A DNA stretch of 5,991 bases from the NCBI RefSeq assembly GCF_006345805.1, contig NW_021829525.1, positions 1 to 5,991 of the forward strand. Reading direction: 5' to 3'. Positions 3,710 through 5,577 of the stretch are shown here, in pieces. A program made the position numbers and the translations under genes. Within the stretch, counting starts at the first letter, position 1, and each line of letters begins with the position of its first letter. This stretch comes from Octopus sinensis. Taxonomy: Eukaryota. Below the pieces are notes generated by a model. That model saw only the letters and a list, made by a program, of their open reading frames with translations, was not told where the DNA came from and made no database searches.

Positions 3710-3718
3710 AACAATATT

Positions 3719-4107
3719 GACCAAGGTTACCGTGGTCTTTTTCGTAGGCTTTTCTTCCCACGGATAAACCTTACTTGCTTTCCCCTTTACACCATATATC
3801 ATAACACTGTGATACACGATCCCTATTGATCGTTTTTTTTCCTCTTCCCCTTTTTTCCCCCTTTTTTCTTCTTTTTTTCATTTCTCTCTTCTTTTGTTCT
3901 TTTTCCTTTTCTTCTTTTTTTCTTTTTCTTTTTTTATTTTTTATTTTATTTATTTTGTTCTTTTCTTCCCTTTTACGATCCCTCTTGATCGAAAACCTAC
4001 GCCCCCCCCTTTTTTTTGTTTCTTTCATCCCCCAAAAGAAAAGCTCTACTTTGTAACTTTCCCATCTGTGTGCAGCCCTGTGTGGCCAATAAAGAAACTT
4101 ATCTCTA
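3719..4107 (+). mobile_element. 3'UTR-only copy of the same L1/Tx1-like LINE family, opposite orientation
   Basis: Shares ordered blocks with the reverse complement of 1951-2207: AGGTTACCGTGGTCTTT, AGGCTTTTCTT, CTGTGATACACGATCCC, AAAAGAAAAGCTCTAC, CAGCCCTGTGTGGCCAATAAAGAAA (AATAAA 4088-4093). It has an expanded T/C tract at about 3833-3974. Confidence 0.85.
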
Positions 4108-4317
4108 AATATATATATTAACGAAAGCATACACCCGTCAATCACCATATGTACAGCATACATACTGTCCCCTTCCTATTTAAAAAAAAAAAACTTCCTC
4201 CTTCCATCCAACTTTGACGTCATTGCTTGTAACGGATTATATTAAATAATTAATTGTTACTGTGGAAATCATGTAGGCAGTTATTAAGAAGTTTTTGTCC
4301 GTCTTGAGGCTGATATA

Positions 4318-4420
4318 GGTTCCTTGTATTTCCTGATGAGAAGACGGCATAATGCAACCTTCATTCCTTCAGAATTAAGAGTATGCAGTCTTCGAAACAT
4401 ATGTCGAAAGTAAAGGAATT
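4318..4420 (+). ncRNA. type I hammerhead ribozyme, canonical core
   Basis: Stem I: TTTC(4329-4332)/GAAA(4406-4409) plus TTCCTT(4320-4325)/AAGGAA(4413-4418). Core CTGATGA at 4333-4339. Stem II: GAAGAC(4340-4345)/GTCTTC(4388-4393) plus GCATA/TATGC. GAAA at 4394-4397. Stem III: AC-ATAT-GT. Cleavage triplet GUC, with the cut after 4405. Confidence 0.85.
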
Positions 4421-4580
4421 TTGTTAAAATCTTCGTTCGACTCCATTCTTTTCATTTATTCATATAAAAAAACACACACATTTCCACACACAAACACGGA
4501 GTTCTGACCTTGGCATGTAGCTTCAACCGTGTTTTACTGACGTGAATTTGCTACTCAGGTATCGATTAACCGAATTATCC

Positions 4581-4609
4581 ATACTAGGATAATTCATTCA
4601 CCTACTTAA

Positions 4610-4641
<32 letters not shown>

Positions 4642-4853
4642 AAAGGGCTTAGTAAAATAAATTACTTTGCCACATACTGAACTCATTAGAAATAGTAGCT
4701 AAAAAAACTTTTTTAAAACTATTTCTAATACTTAAGAAAATCTCTCTCATATAGTGTTTGCTCAATTCAACTCACGAAAATTAATTTTACCCTCAATTGT
4801 TTATAAATATATATATATATATATATTTAAGTAGGTGAATGAATTATCCTAGT

Positions 4854-4855
<2 letters not shown>
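4581..4855. repeat. perfect 30-bp inverted repeat (extending inward through (TA)n) enclosing an AT-rich spacer; MITE-like or inverted retroelement terminus
   Basis: ATACTAGGATAATTCATTCACCTACTTAAA (4581-4610) is the exact reverse complement of 4826-4855. Confidence 0.9.
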
Positions 4856-4968: not shown

Positions 4969-4979
4969 GTAATGCCATG

Positions 4980-5200
4980 TTAAAAAGCAACAGAAATATC
5001 CAAAAACGTTACTCATAGTTTCCGCTCCGAAACTGTTTCAGTCGAGACAGTTTGATTCAGAATCTAAACAAAACTGTCCGAGGAACGGCAGCGCGAAAAT
5101 CTGAGTAACAGTTTTTGTGTCATTTTTGCTGATTTTTAATAAAGCATGTTACTCTACCTCTGGTATTCGACTACTATTATTTCCACCTTGTTTCTTTATT
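4980..5200. mobile_element. head-to-head inverted pair of putative Penelope-like element termini
   Basis: The reverse complement of 4982-5022 (GAAACTATGAGTAACGTTTTTGGATATTTCTGTTGCTTTTT) resembles 5095-5137 (GAAAATCTGAGTAACAGTTTTTGTGTCATTTTTGCTGATTTTT). The symmetry axis is near GATTC-A-GAATC (5054-5064), and both arms carry hammerhead-like motifs. The family assignment is inference. Confidence 0.5.
5070..5115 (+). ncRNA. variant, partly decayed minimal type I hammerhead ribozyme
   Basis: Stem I: AAAACTGT(5070-5077)/ACAGTTTT(5108-5115). Core CCGAGGA (U4C variant of CUGANGA). Stem II: aCG-GCAG-CGc. GAAA at 5095-5098. Stem III region ATCTGAG. Triplet GUA, with the cut after 5107. Mismatches at the base of stems II and III. 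Confidence 0.6.
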
Positions 5201-5437
5201 TGCGAGCAGAGTTGTTCGAAAACCGAGGTACTACTGTATATATTTACATATGCTACTGTACTTTCAAACTTGCATACTTCTACACGAATACACACACCAC
5301 CCACCACATACAGCCATCTCTAAACACCTGAATGTCACAGACCAGGCGAGATAATCCACCTCGGAATCTCCGAGAATGGTGCATGCAATATTTCGCCATT
5401 ATTGTGGTTTACCAATATCATGTAGTCAGACCGTCTC

Positions 5438-5577
5438 GACCGATTGAGTAAGTGTTAGTTTTTAAAAGAATATAAGTACTATGGTCGATCTGTTCGTTTA
5501 AAAATTCATCAAGGCGGTGCCCCAGCTTGGCCGCAGTGCAATGTCTGAAACAAGTAAAAGATATAAAAAGTAAAAGA
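5438..5577 (+). mobile_element. 3' half of a second SINE family (octopus-type), 5'-truncated
   Basis: GGTCGATCTGTTCG...AAGGCGGTGCCCCAGCTTGGCCGCAGTGCAATGTCTGAAACAAGTAAAAGA followed by an A-rich (TAAAAG) tail and then microsatellites. It matches my recollection of a common octopus SINE 3' end. Confidence 0.7.

Follow-up and report, generated by a model that had tools for sequence, protein, structure and literature searches.

A hammerhead motif with a long helix II domain in a truncated Penelope-like element of Octopus sinensis, and its probable action as a dimer

Hammerheads in the pseudo-LTRs (pLTRs) of Penelope-like elements (PLEs), their action as dimers and the presence of Hydra elements in octopus are already known. 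Elements of the Hydra clade, which includes Hydra-1_Obim, are described as having a single frame with a reverse transcriptase (RT) and, at its C terminus, a GIY-YIG endonuclease (EN), with DKT, CxxC before E, a C-terminal CxH and (TA)n targets, along with 5' truncation, an inverted 5' partner and a hammerhead close to the 3' end (Craig et al. 2021, PMC8557442). The minimal or short-helix-III PLE hammerheads are type I motifs in pLTRs with a G10.1-C11.1 pair and with palindromic 15.2-16.2 and loop 3, and their elements form opposite-strand pairs 100-700 bp apart and mostly single truncated copies (Cervera and de la Pena 2014, PMC4209133). The non-LTR retrozymes of animals also carry type I hammerheads with low G+C and a short helix III (PMC7229834; bioRxiv 2026.07.22.740005). 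The window analysed here is an entire 5,991-base contig of the 2.72-Gb Octopus sinensis genome; the hammerhead within it and the family to which it belongs share the above features with each of these systems.

The likeness ends at several points. The helix II domain measures 39-62 nt here, whereas 26 of the 26 Hydra rows in File S2 have 3-10-nt loops and 3-7-bp stems, and helix III is an 8-nt palindrome here compared with arms of mostly 9-10 nt with unpaired centres in Hydra (PMC8557442). The unit is ~3.6 kb rather than <3 kb, the tail is 140 nt rather than the 30-40 nt of the Hydra comparison, and the Hydra-1_Obim ribozyme is a different sequence from that of the window (PMC8557442). The hammerheads described in PMC4209133 have a helix II of at most 7-8 bp and an extra base between positions 9 and 10.1, whereas the motif here has a multi-segment domain and no extra base. 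The animal retrozymes are 170-400-nt tandem non-coding repeats, whereas the window motif belongs to the end of a coding element (PMC7229834; bioRxiv 2026.07.22.740005). Precedent for a long helix II comes from spike-moss PLE-X1, in which loop 2 is 35 and 29 nt and is flagged as deviating (File S2, PMC8557442); unlike the elements here, these are EN-lacking plant elements with a 28S rDNA target and non-canonical helices (PMC8557442). The Rfam hammerhead families have their core and topology in common with the window motif, yet Rfam returns no match. The Naiad 'HHR_half_core' was considered as the same ribozyme and rejected; in Naiad_Ovul, one of eight and read by eye, the GAAA half precedes the CUGAUGA half, and a type I motif of the long-helix-II kind was not seen there. 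The long-helix-II form was also not found in the literature on octopus hammerheads, cephalopod Penelope ribozymes and extended helix II, represented mostly by open-access texts without figures. As read from sequence, the features that appear to be new here are the 39-62-nt helix II domain without an Rfam match, the 140-nt tail, a slight surplus of copies whose first base follows the cut site, and a linker that has lost its zinc finger in a lineage still targeting (TA)n.

The hammerhead is carried in a 490-nt 3' fragment (4117-4606) of a PLE set in (TA)n (Table 1). It is the only ribozyme match in the window, and the window copy is solitary, frameless and outside any tandem array. The inverted piece of tail end downstream is probably a separate tiny insertion at the next (TA)n run. 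The contig is filled with repeats, and its 5,991 bases yielded no identifiable host exon. A search via 4975-5440 for the locus in a chromosomal or an empty state recovered only another repeat family. Among the neighbouring sequences, 4980-5200 is a distinct, MITE-like repeat, self-matching on both strands and with 2,074 candidates in the O. sinensis genome, 3366-3577 and 5438-5589 are SINE-like dispersed repeats with 72-84% identity to several unrelated loci, and 1928-2215 and 3718-4097 are, by eye, opposite-strand copies of another repeat end. The hammerhead element was placed in the TA run directly after the repeat end at 3718-4097. Taken singly, the window locus is ordinary repeat debris.

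Table 1. Features of the hammerhead-bearing fragment and its flanks, in window coordinates
Feature	Positions	Strand	Evidence
(TA)n target, left flank	4107..4118	.	Sequence
3' fragment of a 5'-truncated Penelope-like element (3' UTR end/pseudo-LTR and tail)	4117..4606	+	Sister-copy alignment, 87-99%
Type I hammerhead ribozyme motif	4320..4418	+	Sequence, fold, covariation over 16 clusters
Helix I, 5' strand, including 3-nt internal loop 4326-4328	4320..4332	+	Sequence, fold, cluster comparison
Catalytic core CUGAUGA	4333..4339	+	Sequence
Long helix II domain, 54 nt	4340..4393	+	Fold, cluster comparison
Catalytic core GAAA	4394..4397	+	Sequence
Palindromic helix III ACAUAUGU, with predicted inter-ribozyme pairing	4397..4404	+	Self-duplex energy, cluster comparison
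GUC triplet (4403-4405) with predicted cut C4405/G4406	4403..4406	+	Hammerhead topology, weak genomic footprint
Helix I, 3' strand	4406..4418	+	Sequence, fold, cluster comparison
UUCGAC, predicted partner of 4403-4408, hiding the cut site in the monomer	4436..4441	+	Fold prediction
First 3' end of copies (pseudo-LTR end; putative RT start)	4459..4466	+	16/43 arms
140-nt tail, part of the following unit's 5' UTR; also second 3' end of copies (putative RT start)	4467..4606	+	24/43 arms
(TA)n target, right flank	4607..4641	.	Sequence; (TA)4 within 20 nt at 35/40 family ends
Inverted 29-nt piece of the tail end	4827..4855	-	Inverted repeat I11, sequence

The initial annotation had proposed a complete type I hammerhead, and reading of the sequence bore out all of the core nucleotides and helices that it had placed. 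Hammerhead position numbering is used for the core and helices. The letters at 4397-4404 read ACATATGT, and G4340 and C4393 are present as the G10.1-C11.1 pair. Helix I pairs 4329-4332 with 4406-4409 and, beyond a 3x3 GTA/GTA loop, 4320-4325 with 4413-4418, while helix II consists of the segments 4340-4345/4388-4393, 4347-4351/4382-4386, 4359-4361/4377-4379 and 4363-4366/4372-4375. Folded alone, 4320-4418 gave pair probabilities of 0.84-0.89 for proximal helix I, 0.98-0.99 for proximal helix II and 0.9 for the CUU/AAG pairs, and just 0.01-0.02 for a monomeric helix III. We looked for the canonical contact between loop 1 and loop 2; loop 2 is replaced by the long domain and the loop-1 letters are variable, the GUA/GUA internal loop differing between subfamilies. 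The folding z-score of the whole region was a modest -2.05, with 5 of 200 shuffles equally good. An Rfam search gave no hammerhead match for the window at E<=1 or for 4290-4450 at E<=10, and a short-helix-II hammerhead pattern had zero matches within the window. The case against chance rests on comparison with other copies.

A pattern describing the core with a long helix II, its spacer set to 35-65 nt, matched 5,451 times in the O. sinensis genome, compared with 8 matches for a reversed-pattern control. This pattern fixed the core, position 7 included, and required a helix II of 30-70 nt, and for this reason core conservation and helix II length are both biased measures here; the count is a lower bound because position 7 is variable in nature. 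In full-length relatives that position of CUGAUGA is T, A or C, and the other core positions match the search pattern. The fetched loci held 123 pattern matches, which reduce to 95 distinct sequences and 16 clusters, and the helix II domain spans 39-62 nt across the cluster representatives within the range set by the pattern. Both helices I and II formed in 60 of 96 distinct O. sinensis matches, and in none of 116 metagenome matches to the same long-helix-II pattern (2 of 64 collection parts searched).

Pairs I.1-I.4 are kept in 15, 16, 15 and 13 of the 16 clusters and pairs II.2-II.5 in 16, 16, 14 and 12, each kept pair being represented by two to five pair types. Watson-Crick pairs account for 14, 15, 14 and 12 of the 16 representatives at I.1-I.4 (shuffle means 5.0-7.2) and for 16, 14, 14 and 10 at II.2-II.5 (shuffle means 4.1-8.1). 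When the helix I strands of these representatives were slid against each other, 17-29 of 64 pairs formed, versus 48 in register. The fifth helix I pair and the sixth helix II pair did no better than shuffles over the 16 representatives. The shuffles ignore kinship between clusters, and related clusters inflate such tests; with 7 coarser clusters most positions were still at p<0.05. The check that had been suggested for the ribozyme, a search for genome copies with covariation in stems I and II, yielded thousands of matches and, across the 16 cluster representatives, covariation of both helices, and core, topology and cross-copy covariation together support the type I assignment. The long stem II had been called atypical. 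The term holds against the published Hydra table and fails as an oddity of this locus, since thousands of copies share the long form. The nearest sister copy (L002, 98.6% identical) has lost G10.1.

A search with 4260-4480 gave at least 54 matches of 91-100% identity among the best 40 of 2,207 candidates that were scored. The stretch common to the window and 29 matched loci is 4117-4606, followed by (TA)n. Sister copies run further upstream with staggered 5' ends, into a frame that ends in a GIY-YIG endonuclease; this endonuclease frame lies upstream of window-family sequence in L014, L026 and L030. A search for the endonuclease gave 15,704 first-look candidates, of which the best 150 were scored. 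In L082, RT and EN share a frame of 616 aa; its EN has 95% identity to that of L026, and its pLTR has 90% identity to the window. L142 and L147 belong to related subfamilies and are complete elements, in which same-sense ribozymes flank frames of 906 and 899 aa at ribozyme-to-ribozyme periods of 3,674 and 3,621 nt. The full-length order is a pLTR with ribozyme, a ~260-nt 5' UTR, a ~900-aa RT and GIY-YIG frame, a 3' UTR and a second pLTR with ribozyme, which places the predicted cut ~260 nt ahead of the ATG in full-length relatives. Copies at least 90% identical were inspected for lack of an upstream RT-EN frame, and the frame was found present. The proposed link to PLEs is therefore sustained, with the motif in a pseudo-LTR collinear with the end of an RT-EN element, while the further description as a non-autonomous retroelement is not supported: the window holds a 5'-truncated copy whose sisters carry the RT and GIY-YIG frame upstream, and there is no tandem array. 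The conditional suggestion that an intronic ribozyme here could cut a host pre-mRNA likewise gains no support from a contig in which no host exon was identified. Recent activity of these families is possible, as frames of 850-920 aa are open in several related copies (for example L142-L150). Another hammerhead family, with ACGT in loop 3 and a GUA triplet, forms a near-perfect head-to-head pair at L031:3090-3910, about 600 nt upstream of a window-family copy.

Pfam gave no match above cut-off for RT or EN, so the RT and GIY-YIG call rests on motifs (L082, L083, L142, L147) and on 39 homologues at E<=1e-20, the best named protein match being from Argonauta hians (37% identity). RT and, at the C terminus, a GIY-YIG endonuclease lie in one frame, as in C-terminal EN+ PLEs, and the elements have pseudo-LTRs by partial tandem, inverted 5' partners, a tail and 5' truncation, as PLEs do. 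SDKT, with DKT in place of DKG, is found in all five listed frames that reach the motif (L083, L142, L144, L147, L148), and CxxC before E and a C-terminal CxH in 8 of 8 endonuclease frames. CCHH is absent, with a single Cys between the GIY and YIG halves by eye. The RT motifs resemble those of the Hydra-1_Obim protein in a by-eye comparison (PMC8557442). By the motif definitions given in that source, the predicted element protein is of Hydra type (PMC8557442). Two departures stand out. The N-terminal RWK of Hydra (PMC8557442) keeps its place with a changed third letter, reading RIRWL in four frames and RIRWF in L132. The CxCx5C linker before EN that is described for Hydra (PMC8557442) occurs in all 31 of those homologues, out of 39 found, that have an EN end, as well as in L091, which is a different O. 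sinensis family. It occurs in 0 of 8 frames of the window lineage, where an Asn/Ser-rich stretch of 136-169 aa replaces it. The lineage is filed for this reason as a Hydra-type variant rather than a plain Hydra member. The zinc finger is gone from the linker region of L082, L083, L142, L144 and L147, and the window lineage still inserts in (TA)n. The Neptune clade, our first reading, was dropped on motif definitions and alignment; for Neptune and Nematis the CX2-5CxxC linker, CCHH and DKG were looked for and not found. The non-LTR retrozyme class, with tandem non-coding units of 170-400 nt, does not describe this copy either, which has one ribozyme match and sisters that continue into a coding frame.

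Copy ends were surveyed at 27 distinct loci (two duplicate loci dropped) with 43 arms. Twenty-four arms end near 4606, 16 near 4466 and 3 elsewhere, and (TA)4 occurs within 20 nt after 35 of 40 family ends, as expected of (TA)n insertion. The tail sequence continues for about 55 nt to an ATG in L114, L116, L128, L132 and L135. Sixteen head-to-head pairs were identified by eye, 13 of them with one arm of the 4606 kind and one of the 4466 kind; the other three combine a 4606 arm with an irregular arm, and zero pairs have two alike. Two reverse-transcription start sites are described as defining the tail of an Anolis element (PMC11167929), and the mixed pairs would fit a similar use of two starts here. 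Both 3' ends lie downstream of the predicted cut, which implies that most copies derive from RNA uncut at that ribozyme. Short TA-like stretches at window 4461-4466 and 4606-4613 match the (TA)n target at both ends (weakly in the L031 family) and could prime reverse transcription. Within the tail, CAG|GTATCG at 4556-4564 resembles a splice donor and has similar counterparts in related subfamilies, and a pyrimidine-rich AG lies about 60 nt beyond it in full-length 5' UTRs; a 5' UTR intron in the element is possible.

We then considered helix III. Loop 3 occurs as eight perfect palindromes over the 16 clusters, and its two central, adjacent bases are complementary in 16 of 16 (15 Watson-Crick, shuffle mean 5.7) and in 7 of 7 coarser clusters. 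Purine-purine combinations at the centre make up 85 of the 5,451 matches, and about half of these rows (some 40 copies) belong to one family with the non-palindromic loop 3 ACCGAGGT, the clear exception to palindromy, exemplified at genome coordinates C1:98388997-98389061. Tandem G-A pairs are a self-pairing motif, and we read this loop 3 as one that would still self-pair through them. From the sequences compared, palindromy, rather than sequence, is conserved in loop 3. Adjacent central bases are unable to pair inside one loop yet remain complementary, which argues for cleavage as a dimer. The window palindrome has a self-duplex energy of -7.0 kcal/mol. The dimer type of helix III that had been put forward for the window motif is thus upheld by the eight palindromes and by central complementarity across clusters. 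Published assays agree in direction with this dimer reading by analogy. The minimal hammerhead monomer is reported inactive and its dimers weakly active (PMC4209133), and a ribozyme with a 2-bp helix III and a tetraloop was 22% cleaved in 1 h as a monomer and far better as a dimer (PMC7229834).

Cleavage after C4405 is predicted from hammerhead topology. With 60-200 nt of flank, helix I was predicted to be lost (p 0.01-0.18) in three of five contexts and was retained at about 0.8 in the two with the shortest flanks, and in the long context just 11.5% of 113 copies kept it; these context folds are monomer models, in which neither tertiary contacts nor the dimer helix are represented. Occasional copying of cut RNA would be expected to give copies that begin at 4406. 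At fourteen loci the three bases ahead of 4406 are other than GTC, and 12 of these are true junctions by eye; in 2 of the 12, both head-to-head arms stop at the cut site. A control site at 4397/4398 gave 6 matches compared with the 14 at 4405/4406, the two patterns being unlike. Of 42 short head-to-head junctions, 22 are without overlap and give 44 arms, 5 of which start at +1, with 0, 1, 1, 0 and 0 at 0 to -4 and 3 and 4 at +3 and +4. Some short arms are wrongly assigned by the script, and the cut site is spanned by a TCGA palindrome, which the GUA families lack. The excess of copies starting at the cut site is weak and suggestive, a lead. Contigs of four sequencing runs, three of them presumed RNA, include family members, with no ends, strand or level readable. 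For the Anolis element, RNA-seq reads are reported neither to have begun nor to have ended at the ribozyme site (PMC11167929).

We consider it likely that the motif is the pLTR hammerhead of a Hydra-type PLE, present here as a solitary truncated copy in (TA)n, and that the ribozymes of the parent element cut after C4405 only as a double hammerhead joined through the palindrome. A read-through or tandem transcript would hold two ribozymes that pair via the helix III palindromes, probably helped by protein; a PLE ribozyme is described as having required the protein of its element and as being dispensable for insertion in vitro (PMC11167929). The cut at the upstream ribozyme would free the unit and leave a 5'-OH end before the ATG. 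Cleavage would be partial, since the downstream cut site is contained in genomic copies, whose template RNA was thus uncut at that site, and reverse transcription would start 61 and 201 nt downstream of the cut site. The window copy, lacking both a cis partner and a frame, is likely an inert passenger.

Alternatively, a single ribozyme might be active on its own, with a non-canonical tertiary contact supplied by the long helix II together with the extended helix I such that a 2-bp helix III suffices. The helix I internal loop lies at the expected distance for this, folded representatives have an internal loop or bulge after 4-7 bp of helix II, and a 2-bp helix III with a tetraloop is described as typical of efficient invertebrate retrozyme ribozymes (PMC7229834). 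However, a monomer gives no reason for the central loop-3 bases to stay complementary in 16 of 16 clusters, the internal-loop letters vary, and the helix III pair probability is 0.01-0.02, and we judge this alternative unlikely. Somewhat less likely still is that the fold is kept chiefly for protein binding or translation, as part of the 5' UTR, with cleavage rare or secondary. Most copies do span the cut site, ribozyme mutants of the Anolis element left insertion in vitro unaffected (PMC11167929), and type I hammerheads in the 5' UTRs of fungal viruses serve translation initiation, there via cleavage (PMC13725137). Against this reading, thousands of copies from divergent families have the entire catalytic core together with a triplet that is GUC or GUA, and there is the weak excess of copies that begin exactly at the cut.

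We assign a very low probability to a stand-alone non-autonomous retrozyme or SINE-like element, or to an intronic ribozyme that has been domesticated and acts on a host transcript. A precedent for the retrozyme exists in the same genome: L096:1500-3023 (C1:46318500-46324500) holds a 400-402-nt tandem array of 3.8 units, each with a long-helix-II hammerhead with TGCA in loop 3 and with no RT-EN match in 6 kb, and looks from its sequence like a non-LTR retrozyme of another O. sinensis family. The window copy, in contrast, is single and collinear with the 3' end of RT-EN elements, is recent, being 98.6% identical to another locus, and sits in a repeat-filled contig without an identified host exon; this alternative is already largely refuted by the frame that sister copies carry upstream.

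The dimer reading of a Hydra-type hammerhead may extend further. Tentatively, and with more doubt than conviction, we suggest a Hydra-type radiation with an obligate-dimer hammerhead in which helix II is a module, the palindrome a family barcode, copies at the cut site a record of germ-line cleavage, and (TA)n targeting kept without the finger. If this were true, the 40-60-nt helix II might be, for example, a protein-binding cleavage switch or a translation element before the ATG, and the barcode would let only like ribozymes pair. Cleavage in living germ-line cells would have left its genomic record in the copies that start exactly at the cut, and the (TA)n target would be kept without a zinc finger, perhaps via short TA matches at both RT start sites. 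The lost finger bears on the proposal that the CxCx5C linker directs (TA)n targeting. One published core descriptor, as its text gives it, has a spacer of 7-17 nt, which the long helix II here exceeds; with no Rfam match in addition, counts may miss thousands of ribozymes in genomes of this sort. The role of the hammerhead in PLEs has been called unclear (PMC8557442). Thousands of divergent copies, eight palindromes and full-length open frames make that role directly testable, and the eight loop-3 palindromes would be a natural compensatory series for the dimer model.
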